Position numbers and translations under genes: made by a program. Below are positions 1 to 5,176 of a DNA stretch of 5,204 bases, in pieces; within the stretch, counting starts at the first letter, position 1, and every line of letters begins with the position of its first letter. The DNA lies in the IMG/VR virus record IMGVR_UViG_2548876958_000011; one strand, 5' to 3'. The notes beneath the pieces were generated by a model. That model saw only the letters and a list, made by a program, of their open reading frames with translations. It was not told where the DNA came from and did no database searches. Source of the DNA: a virus (lineage: Duplodnaviria; Heunggongvirae; Uroviricota; Caudoviricetes).

Positions 1-200
1 CCCGGTGTCCTCAACGGGGAAGGAATAACCCCGCCATACTTACCGCCGCGCCATTTTGCGGGTTGCCACAACCGGAAGCGCACGGTCGAATTAAATTTAA
101 CGACACCGTACAGTGAGACGAACTTCGCCGTGCGCTTTCGTGTTGTGTGCCTGCTTTTAACCACGTCAGGCGAGGTGGTATCCTTAAAATCACCACAGTT

Positions 201-776
201 TTAAGGATTCATTAAGCAATGTCGCAACCACCAATAAATCCGCTTAAGAACATGAAAATTGATTACTGGTATAAAGCGCTTACAGTTGTTGGCGCTGCGT
301 TGTTTGTCTTTAATGGAACGTCTTTTTTTGACAGATATCCCGTTGTTCCATTGGGTTTTTTGTCCTCCGGCATCTTTTTTATTGGTTTGGGGGAGTGGAT
401 TAATCACCCTCTCAAAGTGAGATTTATTGGCCCTGGAGTTTGGACTCGTGGATATAATCGTTCTTCGTGCGCACTCGGTATCATCTTCGACATACTTGGT
501 TGTTTCCTGATTGTTACAGGAGTCGTCAAGTTCTTCTGATGTAAAACCGCAAATGGGGCACGTAACGGGAATTTTGAAAAGCGTTTCTCCGGGTTCCAGA
601 ACAAAATTTTCTGCGGTCTGATTTTGCTTCTCATATTTGTGCTCCGCGTCATTGTGAGAGCACATTCTTATTCTGAGTGCCTGTTTAAACTCACTGAAGC
701 TGAGAGCTTCTTCGCCTTCGGCAAGGCCTTCGAAGTATTCTTCGTAAGCCTTTTCCATGATTGTGTCGAAATCCAT
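201..776 (-). CDS. Acidic hypothetical protein, 191 aa as read to the first stop; C-terminal extent uncertain
   Basis: ATG at 776-774 preceded by AGGTGA with 5-nt spacing, 1 nt after the TGA of the upstream 51-aa ORF. N-terminal ~80 aa acidic and protein-like (MDFDTIMEKAYEEYFEGLAEGEE...). The distal ~110 aa is K/R/N/S-rich low complexity and is the codon-aligned antisense of the 219-539 membrane ORF, so it may be a shadow. Confidence 0.4.
   Translation of the reverse strand: MDFDTIMEKAYEEYFEGLAEGEEALSFSEFKQALRIRMCSHNDAEHKYEKQNQTAENFVLEPGETLFKIPVTCPICGFTSEELDDSCNNQETTKYVEDDTECARRTIISTSPNSRANKSHFERVINPLPQTNKKDAGGQKTQWNNGISVKKRRSIKDKQRSANNCKRFIPVINFHVLKRIYWWLRHCLMNP
219..539 (+). CDS. Small predicted membrane protein, 106 aa, about three hydrophobic segments; possible superinfection-exclusion-type function
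   Basis: ATG at 219 preceded by AAGGA (202-206); in-frame TAA at 213-215 prevents upstream extension. Hydrophobic stretches ALTVVGAALFVF, LGFLSSGIFFIGLGEWI and ALGIIFDILGCFLIVTGVV. Opposite orientation to neighbours, as for sieB in Rac-type prophages (synteny recall only). Fully overlapped antisense by the 201-776 ORF. Confidence 0.5.
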   Translation: MSQPPINPLKNMKIDYWYKALTVVGAALFVFNGTSFFDRYPVVPLGFLSSGIFFIGLGEWINHPLKVRFIGPGVWTRGYNRSSCALGIIFDILGCFLIVTGVVKFF

Positions 777-1510: not shown

Positions 1511-1574
1511 GTTAGGTAATTCTAATTTTTCTTGACTTAGATATCCCGCGCACAATAATGTTAGAAAAGTCTAA
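1511..1574. promoter_or_regulatory. OR-like region: rightward promoter with overlapping operators
   Basis: -35 TTGACT (1532-1537), 16-bp spacer, -10 AATAAT (1554-1559). Perfect palindrome TTAGA-AAAG-TCTAA at 1561-1574 over the predicted start site; imperfect GTTAGG-TAAT-TCTAAT at 1511-1526 upstream of -35; lone TTAGA half-site at 1537-1541. On the minus strand a TAGAAT -10-like hexamer (1525-1520) lies ~10 nt before the repressor ATG. Confidence 0.55.
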
Positions 1575-1589: not shown

Positions 1590-1817
1590 ATGCTTAAAGT
1601 TGACGCAATTACTTTTTTTGGCAGCAAAACAAAGCTTGCCAATGCCGCAGGAGTGAGACTGGCAAGTGTTGCTGCTTGGGGGATACTGGTTCCTGAAGGT
1701 CGCGCGATGCGTCTACAGGAGGCATCTGGCGGGGAGCTTCTGTATGATCCCAAGGTTTATGACGAATATCGTAAGACGAAGCGGGCGGGGCGGTTGAACA
1801 ATGAAAATCACTCCTGA
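1590..1817 (+). CDS. Cro-like small DNA-binding protein (DicC/YdaS-like), 75 aa
   Basis: ATG at 1590 with AGAGGGGG 5 nt upstream; the track's start at 1587 is TTG one codon earlier. Segment FGSKTKLANAAGVRLASVAAW is HTH-like. Divergent from the repressor across the operator region. Resemblance to DicC is from memory. Confidence 0.75.
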   Translation: MLKVDAITFFGSKTKLANAAGVRLASVAAWGILVPEGRAMRLQEASGGELLYDPKVYDEYRKTKRAGRLNNENHS

Positions 1818-2322
1818 ACAGGCTCGTGAGGCTCTGGATGCCTGGATATGTCGACCAGGAATGACACAGGAGCAGGCGACGATATTAATCACTGAAGCAT
1901 TCTGGGCTTTGAAAGAGCGCCCGAACATCGATGTTCAGCGTGTCACAGATGAAGGTGGCGCGGTTGATCAGCGAGCGCTTGGCGTTAATCGAGTGAAGAT
2001 ATTCGAACGCTGGAAGGCTATCGACACCAGGGATAAGCGTGAAAAGTTCACGGCGCTAGTGCCTGCAATTATGGAGGCTATCCGGATTAATGATTTCAGG
2101 TTGTATCGTGAAATTAGTGACGGAAAAAGCATCACGTACATGATCGCCGGGTTAAACAAAGAATATGGCGATGTGGTGGAGTCCGGACTGCTTTTTGCTG
2201 ATCCTGCCGTAGTGGATCGTGAAACTGACGAACTTATAGAAAAAGCAATTGCTTTCAAACTTGCGTATCGACAGCAATACCAACAAAAAGCTGGATGGAA
2301 TTATGAGCCTTCTTTTTGCTGA
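1801..2322 (+). CDS. YdaT-like protein in the cII position, 173 aa
   Basis: ATG at 1801 overlaps the Cro-like stop by 17 nt. Immediately downstream of the Cro-like gene, where Rac/CP-933P-type prophages carry ydaT, reported as a CII functional analogue. Assignment is by synteny and recollection, not alignment. Confidence 0.55.
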   Translation: MKITPEQAREALDAWICRPGMTQEQATILITEAFWALKERPNIDVQRVTDEGGAVDQRALGVNRVKIFERWKAIDTRDKREKFTALVPAIMEAIRINDFRLYREISDGKSITYMIAGLNKEYGDVVESGLLFADPAVVDRETDELIEKAIAFKLAYRQQYQQKAGWNYEPSFC

Positions 2323-3268
2323 ACGCCCACTGGTTATAAACACACAGCTTGCGATGAAGATTGGCTTAAATGAAGCCATTGTGTTGCAGCAGTTGCATTA
2401 CTGGTTGAGAGATACCAATTCCGGCATGGAATGTGATGGTGTTCGCTGGATTTACAACACAACGGAACAATGGCTGGAACAGTTCCCATTCTGGTCAGAG
2501 TCAACGTTAAAGCGCGCGTTTGCAAGTCTGAAAACGCTGGGGCTTTTGCGTTGTGAAAAGCTCAATAAATCAAAGCGCGATATGACCAATTTCTACACGA
2601 TTAACTATGGGAGCGAGCTTTTAGATGATGGCAAATTGAGCGAATCCATCGGTTCAAAATGCGCCGCTCCATCAGGTCAAAATGACACGATGGAAGAGGT
2701 CAAAATGAAACGCTCCATTGGTTCAAAACGACCCAATGTCATCGGGTCAAAATGGCCCGATGATCCTACAGAGAATACAACAGAGATTACTACAGAGAAT
2801 AAAAACACTTTTCGTCCGGAAGCTTCGCAACCGGACCCGCAGACGGCTGAACAGGATTTTTTAATCCGGCACCCTGGCGCAGTTGTGTTTAGTGCGAAAA
2901 AACGCCAGTGGGATAGCCAGGAGGATCTGGCGTGTGCGCAGTGGATATGGGGGCGGATCGTGGGTCTCTACGAACAGGCCGCCAGTGATGATGGCGAGAT
3001 CATGCGACCAAAAGAGCCTAACTGGACTGTCTGGGCCAATGATGTGCGCACAATGCGGATGCTGGATGGCAGAAGCCACAGACAAATTTGTGAAATGTTT
3101 GGTCGGGTACAGCGGGATCCATTCTGGGTAAAAAACATCATGAGCCCGTCAAAGCTCCGCGAAAAATGGGACGAACTGGTCATCCGCCTGGGGCGTTCAC
3201 CTGTACAGCGTTGTGTTAATCATATTTCTGAACCGGATACAGAAATTCCGCCTGGTTTCAGAGGATAA
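2303..3268 (+). CDS. Phage replication initiation / replisome-organiser protein (O-like), 321 aa from ATG 2303
   Basis: N-terminal wHTH-like segment (LVINTQLAMKIGLNEAIVLQQLHYWL) typical of phage initiator N-domains. Iteron array and A/T-rich block lie inside the gene, as for ori-lambda inside O. The track's start at 2249 is TTG; ATG 2303 is preferred and overlaps the upstream stop by 20 nt. Confidence 0.8.
   Translation: MSLLFAERPLVINTQLAMKIGLNEAIVLQQLHYWLRDTNSGMECDGVRWIYNTTEQWLEQFPFWSESTLKRAFASLKTLGLLRCEKLNKSKRDMTNFYTINYGSELLDDGKLSESIGSKCAAPSGQNDTMEEVKMKRSIGSKRPNVIGSKWPDDPTENTTEITTENKNTFRPEASQPDPQTAEQDFLIRHPGAVVFSAKKRQWDSQEDLACAQWIWGRIVGLYEQAASDDGEIMRPKEPNWTVWANDVRTMRMLDGRSHRQICEMFGRVQRDPFWVKNIMSPSKLREKWDELVIRLGRSPVQRCVNHISEPDTEIPPGFRG
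2646..2755 (+). repeat. Replication-origin iterons, five copies of CCATYGGKTCAAAAYG-like repeat
   Basis: TCAAAA cores begin at 2654, 2677, 2700, 2723 and 2747, spaced 23/23/23/24 bp (about two helical turns). Copies fall in different reading frames, so conservation is at the DNA level. Confidence 0.7.
2765..2810 (+). other. A/T-rich block next to the iterons, candidate DNA-unwinding element
   Basis: Three tandem ACAGAGA(A/T)TAC-like units (2769-2802) followed by AAAAACACTTTT, directly downstream of the iterons, mirroring the ori-lambda layout. Confidence 0.5.
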
Positions 3269-3308
3269 GTTTTGATTTCAGGTCATGAGGTAATTTTAAG
3301 GGGGACTT

Positions 3309-3710
3309 GTGGCAAAAGTTTTTACACAAGAAGAGCGGGAAAAAATTAAAGGGCAGGTGGTGGAACTCGTGCGCCAGAGCGGTCGTGAGACGTTACGGCA
3401 ACTGGAAGCTAAAACAGGTGCGACTAGATATCTGATGAGCGTTCTTGCCAGAGAGCTGGTAGCCAGTGGCGATGTATACAACTCCGGCTACGGGTTATTC
3501 CCGTCTGAACAGGCGCGTAAGGACTGGCAAAACGCCCGCAAAAAACTCTCGAGGGCAAAGGTGAAGAAAACAGCTGTGGTTGATCCGGACCTTATCTGGT
3601 CGTTACCTGATGGAGAAATACGTCGCTACGACAGTCGCCTAAACATAATCTGTCGCGAGTGCCGGATGAGTGAAGTTATGCAGCGCATACTGGCATTTTA
3701 TCAGGGATAA
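3309..3710 (+). CDS. Hypothetical protein, 133 aa, possible winged-helix fold; function unknown
   Basis: GTG start at 3309 with strong SD AAGGGGGA (3299-3305); stop TAA 3708-3710. No Walker A motif, so not a DnaC/P-type helicase loader. Basic C-terminal half. Confidence 0.6.
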   Translation: MAKVFTQEEREKIKGQVVELVRQSGRETLRQLEAKTGATRYLMSVLARELVASGDVYNSGYGLFPSEQARKDWQNARKKLSRAKVKKTAVVDPDLIWSLPDGEIRRYDSRLNIICRECRMSEVMQRILAFYQG

Positions 3711-3928: not shown

Positions 3929-5176
3929 TTAAGTCTGAGCCTCACTCTCTTGGCCATAAGTGGCTTGCCAGTATCTCGCCGTAGGGTTCATTAGAATGTG
4001 CAATACAAGCCACCATGCAAAAATGCAGGGAGGTTGATTGTAGTAACCGGCAGGCACATATCCGTGAGCTAGTTGATTTCGTAAATCACCATAGATTTTA
4101 TCTACCAGTAAGGCCTGAAGATTGCCAATTATGTCTACGCCGAAAGCTTCAATAATCAGTGGATTATCTAGTAATCCCTTGAGTCCATTTCGCTCTTGCG
4201 AACCGTCCCCGTGAAGCTGCGATGGTTCCTCACCTTTAATTTTAGCCACATATCTCAGACTATTTTCGATCTGGGGAATCAACACGTGGCATGCCGTCAT
4301 AAAATCTCCATTGAAACCGCAAACCATACCCTTGATGAAAAACTCTTCATGCCCAAACGGGATGAAGGGATGATTGATGAACATATCGCGAAAAAACGCC
4401 TCCGAGATTGGATATTTCATTGTGATCTCATCTGTAGCAGGAATAATTTGCCCAGCTACTGCCAACTCATGGTCGATACGCATTCTCGTCATCATTATGG
4501 GCCAAATAACTGCCCCATTTGCATCATCAATCCCCAATCCTGCGGGTATGCGAGCAAGTGTCATTCCCTCATGATCAATATGTGTTGATCCAAACATCCA
4601 AGCTATGCTGTTGGCCTTTTGTTCTATTGCTTGAGCCTTAAGTCTCTCAATGCTGGTTGGCCGACAGACCAGCATCGCAAGTCTGAAAACCATATCAAAC
4701 AAATCTCTTCCGACTACCCGACTCTTGGCTTGATGGACAATCTCACTAATATCTTGAGGGGGAGACTGAAGGATAGACATCTGGTGACGGGATTCGATTT
4801 GGTAATCACGCATTTCTTCATACAGCGCAAGACGTTCTATTCGGGTTCCTGGAATATTAGCCAGTGCTTCAATAGCATTCTGCATGCAGGCTGCCGAAAT
4901 CATACCGCCATCTTGGAATTTTGACTCTTCCAGATGTGTATCGGCAAGAAGCCGCCAGAATTCAAACTGTGTATCTCTGTCACAGCACCTATTCGCAATC
5001 GGGATTGCGGTTTTACAGGCATCGACGGCAAATGAAAATAATTTTTGAGCCAGATAGTTTTTTGTCAGAAACAGGAGTTCCTGGGCAATAAAAGATGGCT
5101 CACTCACTTTACAGTCGATATCGAGTTGCAGGAGTCGCAGCGGATAAGGTGGATTTGCCCCTATATTTCCAGACAC
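3929..5176 (-). CDS. Hypothetical 415-aa protein with C-terminal HEPN-like R-x4-H-x-Y signature; candidate abortive-infection / defence protein
   Basis: Long ORF convergent with the phage early operon. Motif DLRNQLAHGY at residues 364-373 (nt 4058-4081). Duplicated IDHE motifs (HIDHEGM, RIDHELA) mid-protein. GTG start at 5176 with weak SD, so the N-terminus is uncertain. Stop TAA 3931-3929. Confidence 0.7.
   Translation of the reverse strand: MSGNIGANPPYPLRLLQLDIDCKVSEPSFIAQELLFLTKNYLAQKLFSFAVDACKTAIPIANRCCDRDTQFEFWRLLADTHLEESKFQDGGMISAACMQNAIEALANIPGTRIERLALYEEMRDYQIESRHQMSILQSPPQDISEIVHQAKSRVVGRDLFDMVFRLAMLVCRPTSIERLKAQAIEQKANSIAWMFGSTHIDHEGMTLARIPAGLGIDDANGAVIWPIMMTRMRIDHELAVAGQIIPATDEITMKYPISEAFFRDMFINHPFIPFGHEEFFIKGMVCGFNGDFMTACHVLIPQIENSLRYVAKIKGEEPSQLHGDGSQERNGLKGLLDNPLIIEAFGVDIIGNLQALLVDKIYGDLRNQLAHGYVPAGYYNQPPCIFAWWLVLHILMNPTARYWQATYGQESEAQT

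Follow-up and report, generated by a model that had tools for sequence, protein, structure and literature searches.

A lambda-type replication origin predicted within the initiator gene of a lambdoid Escherichia coli prophage

In phage lambda (read here from J02459) the replication origin lies within the initiator gene, between the parts that encode the two domains of the protein. Its dyad iterons stand in tandem, spaced by about two turns of the helix and with a CAAAAYG-like centre; a purine-rich block of low duplex stability comes after them, and then a palindrome. RepA_N-type plasmids also have their origin within the rep gene, and the iteron-binding winged-helix N-domain of RepA is dimeric in solved structures. 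Direct repeats and an A/T-rich stretch in or beside the initiator gene are likewise found in SPP1 (G38P/oriL), in the lactococcal phages Tuc2009 and TP901-1, and with DnaD-like initiators. Grouped with ori-lambda are the lambdoid variants phi80, 82, P22 and the Stx phages 933W and P27; the Stx phages have six iterons, the distal ones of which are weakly bound (PMC7466680).

We analysed a stretch of 5,204 nucleotides (the window) in which positions 2625–2836, within the linker-coding part of an initiator gene, very probably form the replication origin of a lambdoid E. coli prophage of the mEp460/HannyBb type. Judged from its sequence, this origin appears to be a new member of the ori-lambda kind. 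The genes of the window are ordered repressor, cro-like, cII/YdaT-like and initiator, and the pR-like promoter listed in Table 1 would be expected to drive rightward transcription across the cro-like, cII/YdaT-like and initiator genes and the origin. We also considered the iterons as repressor operators and rejected this assignment, as the operators are a different palindrome (TTAGR-N4-YCTAA).

With an E value of 9e-92, the initiator matches phrog_391 (‘replication initiation O-like’). In a BLASTP alignment that begins at residue 147 of the initiator, the C-terminal domain shows homology to lambda O residues about 150–270, with 33% identity over 148 residues (E 3e-26). The N-domain has no family in Pfam or NCBIfam. 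Phage_rep_O (PF04492), which finds lambda O itself at E 5.7e-36, does not match the window initiator even at E 10, and a profile of the N-domain aligned to lambda O residues 1–128 with hhalign gave a probability of 0.1%, that is, no relationship. As the N-domain lacks sequence similarity to Phage_rep_O, homology of the DNA-binding part to that of lambda is not established. An AF2 model of the N-domain, of medium confidence (pLDDT 77, pTM 0.69), found winged-helix proteins as its best PDB matches in Foldseek, with modest E values of 4e-3 to 4e-2 and TM scores of 0.47–0.61; the staphylococcal plasmid initiator 4pt7/5kbj was among them as a weak match (E about 2e-2 to 4e-2, 17–19% identity). The N-domain is accordingly a putative winged helix, and it belongs to a family that comprises 11,838 clusters (E up to 1e-10) and has no Pfam model.

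The last residues of the initiator resemble those of the host primosomal protein DnaT, with 14/20 identical to K-12 DnaT in BLASTP (E 2e-9). A sequence search of the PDB with the initiator returned only this tail and a chance match to YteR. The tail is a candidate handle for host helicase loading; a role for the last 20 residues of DnaT was not found in a 2026 preprimosome paper. Neither a P-type nor a DnaC-type loader is encoded next to the initiator, the following gene being DUF977/Ren-like. Homologues of the initiator are present in 3,026/5,426 complete E. coli genomes, and in most of them RefSeq calls the product a ‘hypothetical protein’, which can now be read as an initiator with a mapped, though predicted, origin.

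Table 1 Features of the predicted origin and its surroundings, in window coordinates unless given as residues (aa)
Feature	Position	Strand	Remarks
Repressor operators, TTAGR-N4-YCTAA	1014, 1050, 1512, 1561		
pR-like promoter, TTGACT-16-AATAAT	1532..1559	+	10/12 matches; flanked by operator-like palindromes at 1512 and 1561
Initiator gene	2303..3268	+	321 aa, intact ORF; same coordinates in RefSeq and in the phage HannyBb annotation
Initiator N-domain, winged-helix (modelled)	aa 1 to about 110		
Initiator linker, origin-carrying	aa about 108-190		
Initiator C-domain, lambda-O-type	aa about 190-296		followed by the DnaT-like tail
Iteron 0, degenerate, ATGATGGCAAATTGAGCGAAT	2625..2645	+	one 23-bp period upstream of iteron 1
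Iteron 1, ATCGGTTCAAAATGCGCCGCT	2648..2668	+	
Iteron 2, ATCAGGTCAAAATGACACGAT	2671..2691	+	dyad reaches TCCATC...GATGGA
Iteron 3, AAGAGGTCAAAATGAAACGCT	2694..2714	+	
Iteron 4, ATTGGTTCAAAACGACCCAAT	2717..2737	+	
Iteron 5, best dyad, ATCGGGTCAAAATGGCCCGAT	2741..2761	+	inverted repeat, 91% complementary; 24 bp from iteron 4
Three 12-bp units of the form ACAGAGAnTAnn	2768..2803	+	candidate DNA-unwinding element
Module junction	2799..2802	.	the upstream part (N-domain, iterons, 12-mers) and the downstream part (C-domain) are each found recombined with other partners
Inverted repeat, GTCCGGAAGC-ttc-GCAACCGGAC	2814..2836	+	arms 2814-2823 and 2827-2836, 8/10 complementary
DnaT-like C-terminal 20 residues, QRCVNHISEPDTEIPPGFRG	3206..3265	+	70% identity to the last 20 residues of E. 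coli DnaT

The motif GKTCAAAAYG occurs exactly five times in the 5,204 bases, always on the + strand, with starts at 2652, 2675, 2698, 2721 and 2745. The initial annotation had proposed five copies at 23/23/23/24-bp spacing in different reading frames, and all of this is borne out, the frames being 0, 2, 1, 0 and 0 when counted from the start codon at 2303 (ATG). In 200 first-order Markov simulations the longest phased chain of 9-mers (at most 1 mismatch, 21–25 bp apart) was 2, against the five observed. What that annotation overlooked is that every iteron is an imperfect palindrome of about 21 bp, that a sixth, degenerate copy precedes the five, and that a further palindrome follows the repeats at 2814–2836. 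The specificity base of the degenerate copy is G in the window and T in relatives, which carry GAGGTCAAAGTGACC at this position. Lambda-type origins have four or more tandem dyad iterons; here five good ones and one degenerate one lie 23–24 bp apart. The repeats occupy codons 108–178 of 321, between the modelled winged helix and the lambda-O-like C-domain.

The three ACAGAGA(A/T)TAC units reported earlier were also recovered, at 12-bp spacing: ACAGAGAATACA at 2768, ACAGAGATTACT at 2780 and ACAGAGAATAAA at 2792. The motif ACAGAGAWTA is absent from the remainder of the window. These units lie on the promoter-distal side of the iterons, as lambda-type origins require of their low-stability block, and the least stable 40-bp duplex inside the initiator gene is 2772–2811 (z 2.98). 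The description of this block as A/T-rich holds as far as stability is concerned but was overstated in composition, as 2772–2811 is only 65% A+T and the GC of 2760–2799 is 0.35; three intergenic stretches of the window are less stable still. The A-run after the 12-mers had been counted as part of the origin as well, and this too claimed too much, as relatives do not conserve it. They do keep the palindrome, in the form GTCMGGTTnC-n3-GnAACCnGAC with 9–10 of 10–11 positions paired and with compensatory changes (TTGC/GCAA, TTTC/GAAA, TTCC/GGAA, CTGC/GCAG). A palindrome with at least 8 matched pairs is found at 51% of loci, compared with 4.9% of control 60-mers, and the 2814–2836 palindrome is part of the origin unit with the iterons and 12-mers. 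Searching the whole window with Rfam covariance models gave nothing at E up to 1, so the repeats are not explained by any known RNA element, and a literature search with the 12-mer sequences returned unrelated primer matches only.

In the sister phage HannyBb, deposited as an isolated phage with a complete 45-kb genome, the module is 97% identical and the iteron cores are the same as in the window. Across that whole genome the iteron core occurs 5 times (0.59 expected), only at the initiator site, and ACAGAGAWTA occurs 3 times (0.08 expected), only at the origin site. The HannyBb annotation contains neither a helicase loader nor a helicase. Where HannyBb has genes for a DNA methyltransferase and a hypothetical protein, the window carries a DUF4209 gene on the reverse strand. 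This replacement, together with IS elements close by in near-identical prophages of E. coli genomes, leaves some room for the reading that the origin is genuine by descent and inactive in the source strain, the prophage being cryptic or defective. We consider this unlikely: the initiator ORF of 321 residues is intact, the promoter and operators are present, and the five iteron cores and three 12-mers are identical to those of HannyBb. It is, moreover, a statement about the state of the element rather than about the nature of the feature.

The same layout extends well beyond these prophages. Palindromic sites in a phased array are found at this place in about 80 homologous genes, which range from Enterobacterales to Bacillales. 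The layout is seen in six more distant phages, and phages of Staphylococcus, Bacillus and Listeria have true N-domain homologues with it. Across 75 homologous loci from many phyla, phased 9-mers (period 21–24 bp) just after the N-domain reached a mean best count of 3.9; control regions taken from these genes gave 2.2. A homologue search with the N-domain gave only short or truncated products, which entered the alignment and were left out of the architecture comparison; an initial scan of viral contigs returned near-identical copies only and was uninformative. The repeats persist in the DNA of phages that are 78% identical and of relatives as remote as the homologues in other phyla, whose protein identity is about 50%, rather than being lost while the protein is conserved.

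Within this set, the base adjoining the CAAAWTG core tracks a single initiator residue, which is S67 in the window. Serine goes with T in 31/31 loci, aspartate with G in 16/16, lysine with A in 6/6 and asparagine with C in 1/1, so that the rule holds in-sample for 54/56, the two exceptions having V and E. The mutual information between residue 67 and the flanking base is 1.12 bits, and that of the next column 0.70. Five of five phages outside the set fit as well: AF (D/G), Staph 96 and Vibrio SSP002 (R/A), and those of Listeria and Stenotrophomonas (N/C). The half-sites of the iterons change together and stay complementary, with T/A in 31 and G/C in 15 of the 56 loci. The correlation is confounded by shared ancestry, yet each class recurs in distant clades. 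What the sequences of the relatives show can be read as a one-residue DNA-recognition code, with S, D, K or R, and N at position 67 for T, G, A and C, respectively. The proposal that the iteron sequence reports the DNA specificity of the initiator gains support from this residue-to-base correlation.

Co-variation of this kind proves that protein and site have evolved together and not that replication begins there. Plasmid iterons also act in control, and the array might bind the initiator for autoregulation, titration or copy control while replication starts elsewhere. This seems quite improbable, however, as the array leads into the gene's least stable duplex and then a palindrome, in the order known from ori-lambda, and the 45-kb HannyBb genome has no second cluster of iteron cores. 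A site inside the coding region, downstream of the start codon, would also be a poor spot for promoter control.

We next compare codon positions among the homologues. Of the third positions, 11% are invariant in the N-domain, 53% in the iteron array and 83% in the 12-mers; third positions in the origin are thus 5–8 times more conserved than in the N-domain, and the codon-position signature of protein selection vanishes within the origin. The origin sequence is under selection at the DNA level, as the initial annotation had supposed. CAGAGA is present in at least 2 copies at 58/75 homologous loci, and the CAGAGAnTAC 12-mers are more conserved across phyla than the iterons. Being in frame, the 12-bp units are translated as T-E-x-T in most homologues, which is what one would expect if the repeats were flexible-linker peptide repeats (SIGSK..., TENT/TEIT) that arose by slippage and were kept for the protein. 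This explanation is very hard to sustain, as the iterons lie in three frames and encode different peptides, and the excess conservation falls on third positions. Furthermore, ACAGAG encodes 150/170 TE dipeptides (88%) in the 12-mer block and only 9/56 (16%) elsewhere, and at 7 loci a copy of CAGAGA lies in another frame, read as DRDY, TREY or TRDF. Equally remote is a partition (centromere-like) or packaging site, for although par and pac sites can also be phased arrays of dyad sites, the adjacent genes include neither ParA/ParB nor a terminase, the HannyBb terminase gene is about 30 kb away, and the array is in every case located within an initiator gene, with whose protein it co-varies.

The origin is inherited as part of a module. 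Klebsiella phages match the initiator gene at positions 46–496 only, whereas many E. coli prophages match at 500–966 only and have a different N-domain. The N-domain, iterons and 12-mers are co-inherited with three C-domains (lambda-O-type, Phg_2220_C and DnaB_2/DnaD-like). Conversely, the same C-domain is joined elsewhere to an HTH_36 N-domain, and there the iterons are different (TTGACCCGTCAA, 15-bp spacing).

In the mechanism that we propose, rightward transcription from the pR-like promoter would reach the initiator gene, and the N-domain, as a winged-helix dimer, would bind each of the five good dyad iterons of 21 bp. The helix starting at residue 66 would read the bases flanking the CAAAWTG core, with Ser67 pairing with the T of GGTCAA. 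The phased array would then form an O-some-like nucleoprotein that strains the adjacent DNA, and the three CAGAGAnTAC 12-mers, in the least stable duplex of the gene, would open. The lambda-O-type C-domain and the DnaT-like tail would bring in the host DnaB helicase, there being no phage loader gene. Binding, bending, unwinding and helicase recruitment at the window origin are in this way proposed by analogy, and recruitment is the weakest step because no helicase loader is encoded nearby.

It is conceivable, and we suggest it tentatively, that the 12-mers, instead of being a generic melting tract rich in A/T, are a sequence-specific element recognised by the N-domain, likeliest as single-stranded or distorted DNA in a loop-back arrangement like that of RepE/TrfA on their DUE. 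This would explain why conservation of the 12-mers extends from E. coli to Bacillus, Staphylococcus, Campylobacterales and Desulfuromonas even as iteron specificity changes, why in every case they accompany the N-domain, with any C-domain or helicase partner, and why drift to CAGATA occurs only with the most diverged N-domains (Lactobacillus and Flavobacterium phages).

Origins of the N-domain family appear to be predictable from sequence, as nnn-CAAAWTG-nnn palindromes at 21–24 bp followed by CAGAGA-type 11–12-mers. If the recognition of the 12-mers and the residue-67 code are true, a very large family of initiators and origins becomes readable from sequence, and incompatibility groups could be read from genomes. 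That one residue predicts one base of the site suggests a direct experiment, in which the initiator would be re-targeted by point mutation. The 12-mers shared across phyla offer a handle on how iteron-type initiators lacking an AAA+ domain open DNA, and the DnaT-like tail points to a way in which the host helicase might be reached by a phage that lacks a loader gene.

Among known systems, the RepA_N-type initiators of pSK41 and pTZ2162 (PDB 4pt7, 5kbj) have solved folds that rank among those closest to the model of the N-domain, but they belong to plasmid replicons of Gram-positive bacteria, not to phages, and have no sequence-level relationship to the window N-domain. G38P and Rep2009 differ from the window initiator in their C-domains and helicase partners. 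In the RK2 (TrfA) and F (RepE) plasmid origins, the iterons adjoin a DUE of short, sequence-sensitive repeats (13-mers), and Rep binds one DUE strand sequence-specifically in a loop-back model (PMC10797057). No better precedent is at hand for a possible reason why the 12-mers are conserved in sequence, although these initiators are of another fold and family, DnaA boxes are usually needed, and the origin lies outside the rep coding sequence.

The K-12 prophage Rac, reported to have an active origin, oriJ (PMC3945230), shows the same arrangement of RacR-like repressor, YdaS/Cro-like, YdaT, initiator and DUF977 genes. We rejected the identification of the element with Rac, as the initiator YdaU has a different N-domain (DUF1376), and so another specificity module, and is followed by the DnaC-like YdaV. 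Literature searches on oriJ/ydaU and on replisome organizers with direct repeats found no description of this origin type. Lambda is a close parallel, and every testable prediction of the ori-lambda design proposed in the initial annotation held. The parts follow in the same order, the iterons share a CAAAAYG-like centre and the low-stability block is likewise purine-rich, the initiator is O-like with a homologous C-terminal domain, and the repressor, cro, cII-like and initiator genes are arranged as in lambda. The window differs in its N-domain, which has no detectable sequence similarity to Phage_rep_O, and in that neither it nor HannyBb has a P-type or DnaC-type loader gene; the initiator ends in a DnaT-like tail. 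Finally, in place of a plain A/T tract its candidate unwinding block has 12-mers that are conserved in sequence.

The repeat array within the initiator gene is very probably the phage origin, working as ori-lambda does; that it lies silent in a defective prophage is unlikely though far from negligible, and would be compatible with its being an origin. The motif GKTCAAAAYG occurs exactly five times in the window (2652, 2675, 2698, 2721 and 2745), on the + strand only, with spacings of 23, 23, 23 and 24 bp. The copies lie in reading frames 0, 2, 1, 0 and 0 and are followed by three 12-bp units (starts 2768, 2780 and 2792), which bears out what the initial annotation had noticed. A phased chain of 9-mers reached five copies here, against two at most in all 200 Markov simulations. 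Across the complete 45-kb genome of the sister phage HannyBb both motifs are confined to this locus, with five iterons (0.59 expected) and three 12-bp units (0.08 expected). Every iteron is an imperfect palindrome of about 21 bp, the best being ATCGGGTCAAAATGGCCCGAT (2741-2761). The A/T-rich block proposed alongside them stands only in part: positions 2772-2811 form the least stable 40-bp duplex of the gene (z 2.98), but A+T in the repeat block is only 65%. The A-run that had been counted as part of the origin is not conserved.

Homologues lacking the repeats at the DNA level were looked for, and instead the homologous initiator genes were found to keep them. Phages of approximately 78% identity (mEp460_4F5 and Klebsiella phages) retain the array in register. 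An N-domain profile scan, using one genome per species, gave 80 loci from Enterobacterales, Pseudomonas, Xenorhabdus, Desulfuromonas, Campylobacterales, Bacillales and Staphylococcus. In 75 loci the best 9-mer just past the N-domain averaged 3.9 copies at 21-24 bp spacing, compared with 2.2 in same-gene controls, and the iteron cores are lineage-specific (GGTCAAAATGACC, GGGCAAATTGCCC, GGACAATTTGTCC, TGTTCAAAATGAACA, TGATCAAATTGATCA). The same origin plan was observed in the more distant Vibrio SSP002, Pseudomonas AF, Listeria, Lactobacillus, Flavobacterium and Stenotrophomonas phages and in Staphylococcus phage 96. The iteron of this S. aureus phage, CATCGGGACAAAATGGCCCGA (locus L169, 1824-1892), differs from window iteron 5, CATCGGGTCAAAATGGCCCGA (2741-2761), at the specificity base alone, despite hosts in different phyla.

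Comparing the iteron consensus across homologous initiators, we found that the base flanking the repeat core tracks a single residue. In 56 loci with a derivable consensus, the bases flanking the invariant CAAAWTG centre vary together as complements (T/A in 31, G/C in 15), as expected of a symmetric dimer. The most informative alignment column for this base is S67 of the window initiator (1.12 bits against 0.70 for the next best), within FPFWSE-S-TLKR, where the predicted recognition helix begins. Serine accompanies TCAA (31/31), aspartate GCAA (16/16), lysine a GGACAA half-site (6/6) and asparagine CCAA (1/1), with two exceptions, Val and Glu; these counts are inflated by shared ancestry, yet each class recurs in unrelated host clades. 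Five phages outside this set fit the rule: phage AF pairs Asp with GGGCAA, Staph 96 and Vibrio SSP002 pair Arg with GACAA, and in the Listeria and Stenotrophomonas phages Asn goes with CCCAA. Short of a footprint, this co-variation is the strongest available support for the predicted binding of the N-domain to the iterons. Sites bound by the initiator but devoid of origin function, which would share this recognition, are improbable in our judgement.

Across phyla, 58 of 75 loci have CAGAGAnTAC units after the iterons of the proposed origin, irrespective of iteron core, in 2-5 copies spaced by 11-12 bp. Thr-Glu dipeptides in this stretch are encoded by ACAGAG in 150 of 170 cases, compared with 9 of 56 in the remainder of these genes, and seven loci carry one CAGAGA copy in another frame (DRDY, TREY or TRDF), from which it follows that the constraint acts at the DNA. 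Third codon positions among ten sequences of the GGTCAA group agree with the initial proposal of selection on DNA, being invariant at 53% in the iteron array, 83% in the 12-mer block and 62% in the palindrome, against 11% in the N-domain (68% at position 1, 83% at position 2). Peptide repeats can be practically dismissed, as can a par or pac site. CAGATA replaces CAGAGA in Lactobacillus and Flavobacterium phages, which have the most diverged N-domains, and only there; thus the motif tracks the N-domain rather than host or helicase partner. Plasmid Rep proteins, which bind one strand of repeats in the DNA-unwinding element, offer a precedent for sequence-specific unwinding elements (PMC10797057), and lambda-type O proteins bind single-stranded DNA of the A/T-rich region (PMC7466680). 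No description of CAGAGAnTAC was found in the searchable literature, subscription journals aside.

In Enterobacterales a palindrome, GTCMGGTTnC-n3-GnAACCnGAC, follows the 12-mers. Its compensatory pairs (TTGC/GCAA, TTTC/GAAA, TTCC/GGAA, CTGC/GCAG) keep complementarity while altering the amino acids; the window's copy is weaker (8/10). In Geobacillus, Anoxybacillus and Brevibacillus relatives, a (GAA)n run and a ACGCGCGCGCGT-like palindrome of alternating CG come after the 12-mers, and the GTCMGGTT...AACCnGAC palindrome is absent from those loci.

The 321-aa initiator matches phrog_391 ('replication initiation O-like', E 9e-92), and an alignment with the C-terminal half of lambda O covers its residues 147-294 (33% identity, E 3e-26). 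The N-terminal 110 residues matched no family in Pfam or NCBIfam. Their AlphaFold2 model has winged-helix topology (pLDDT 77); the closest solved folds, with modest scores (E 4e-3 to 4e-2, TM 0.47-0.61), belong to DNA-binding winged-helix proteins and include RepA, the initiator of a staphylococcal plasmid, on its iterons (4pt7, 5kbj). A profile search returned 15,564 clusters (50% identity) at E <=1e-3 and 11,838 at E <=1e-10, so this family is very large while lacking a curated model. Many top-scoring relatives (proteins P0121-P0135 and others) are 450-880 aa long with two separate profile-matching stretches, and seem to carry two winged-helix copies.

Domains and origin parts are exchanged as modules. 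What Klebsiella phages have in common with the window is confined to gene positions 46-496, which cover the N-domain, iterons and 12-mers and are joined in those phages to a Phg_2220_C domain. In many E. coli prophages the common part is positions 500-966 alone, the C-domain, attached to an HTH_36 N-domain; the gene there has its own repeats, TTGACCCGTCAA at 15-bp spacing. Staphylococcus phage 96 combines the N-domain, near-identical iterons and 12-mers with a DnaD-like C-domain, a loader and a DnaB-like helicase. In the Rac-like prophage of E. coli STEC383 (L004, 1332-1411), an HTH_36 N-domain with the same C-domain and an in-gene TTGACCCGTCAA-type array precedes a DnaC-like ydaV.

Initiator dimers would occupy the phased dyad iterons, a step to which the co-variation points; by analogy with lambda, the array would then strain the DNA, the neighbouring 12-mers would open and the C-terminal part would recruit the host helicase. 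This last step is the least certain, since the stretch after the initiator (window 3269-3710) has neither a helicase nor a helicase-loader gene, and the annotation of the whole HannyBb genome lists none either; the initiator seems to be the phage's sole replication gene. Its last 20 residues (QRCVNHISEPDTEIPPGFRG; window 3206-3265) are 70% identical to those of E. coli primosomal protein DnaT (E 2e-9), and other phage initiator families (phrog_3729, phrog_18526) finish with this same tail. As a lead rather than a result, the tail may give the phage access to DnaB/DnaC of the host or to the restart primosome.

The window spans the immunity and replication region of a lambdoid prophage of E. coli. 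Its replication module is 96-97% identical in HannyBb, mEp460_ev081 and PhiR42_1, and initiator homologues, usually annotated 'hypothetical protein', are present in 3,026 of the 5,426 complete genomes of E. coli. Four TTAGR-N4-YCTAA palindromes occur where chance would give 0.01: two to the left of the repressor gene, the other two flanking the pR-like promoter in the repressor/cro-like interval. They probably serve as OL and OR, the operators of this immunity type. Next to the DUF4209 gene, a near-identical prophage has a DUF7380 gene and IS elements; the DUF4209 gene may be a moron or serve in defence.

Features of the window and of related loci
Feature	Coordinates	Strand	Remarks
DUF1391 gene	778-987	−	first in gene order
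Operator-like palindromes	1014-1027, 1050-1063, 1512-1525, 1561-1574		TTAGR-N4-YCTAA
cI/RacR-like HTH repressor	1102-1509	−	
pR-like promoter	1532-1559		rightward through cro-like, YdaT/cII-like and initiator genes; 10/12 matches
P22-Cro-like gene	1590-1817	+	
YdaT/cII-like gene	1801-2322	+	
Initiator gene	2303-3268	+	321 aa; phrog_391 match
Sixth iteron copy	2625-2645		degenerate
Module junction	~2799-2802		
Inverted repeat	2814-2823 / 2827-2836		after 12-mers
DUF977/Ren-like gene	3309-3710	+	
DUF4209 gene	3929-5176	−	415-aa product; just past replication module
(GAA)n / CG-alternating palindrome, other loci	L148 811-824; L155 1725-1738; L162 and L163 ~1733-1787; L153 ~1679		

Origins that lie inside the initiator gene and combine iterons, an A/T-rich block and a palindrome are a textbook design, of which the window's is a new example. 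Lambda's own block (ACAAAAGA..., plus GTCAGAGAAT within the lambda palindrome) resembles the 12-mers loosely. The window differs from the ori-lambda type in its DNA-binding domain, which lies outside the Phage_rep_O family and has no detectable similarity to that domain of lambda O. For the family as a whole, the recognition code set by one residue, the 12-mer shared across phyla and the size of this uncurated group of initiators may be new.
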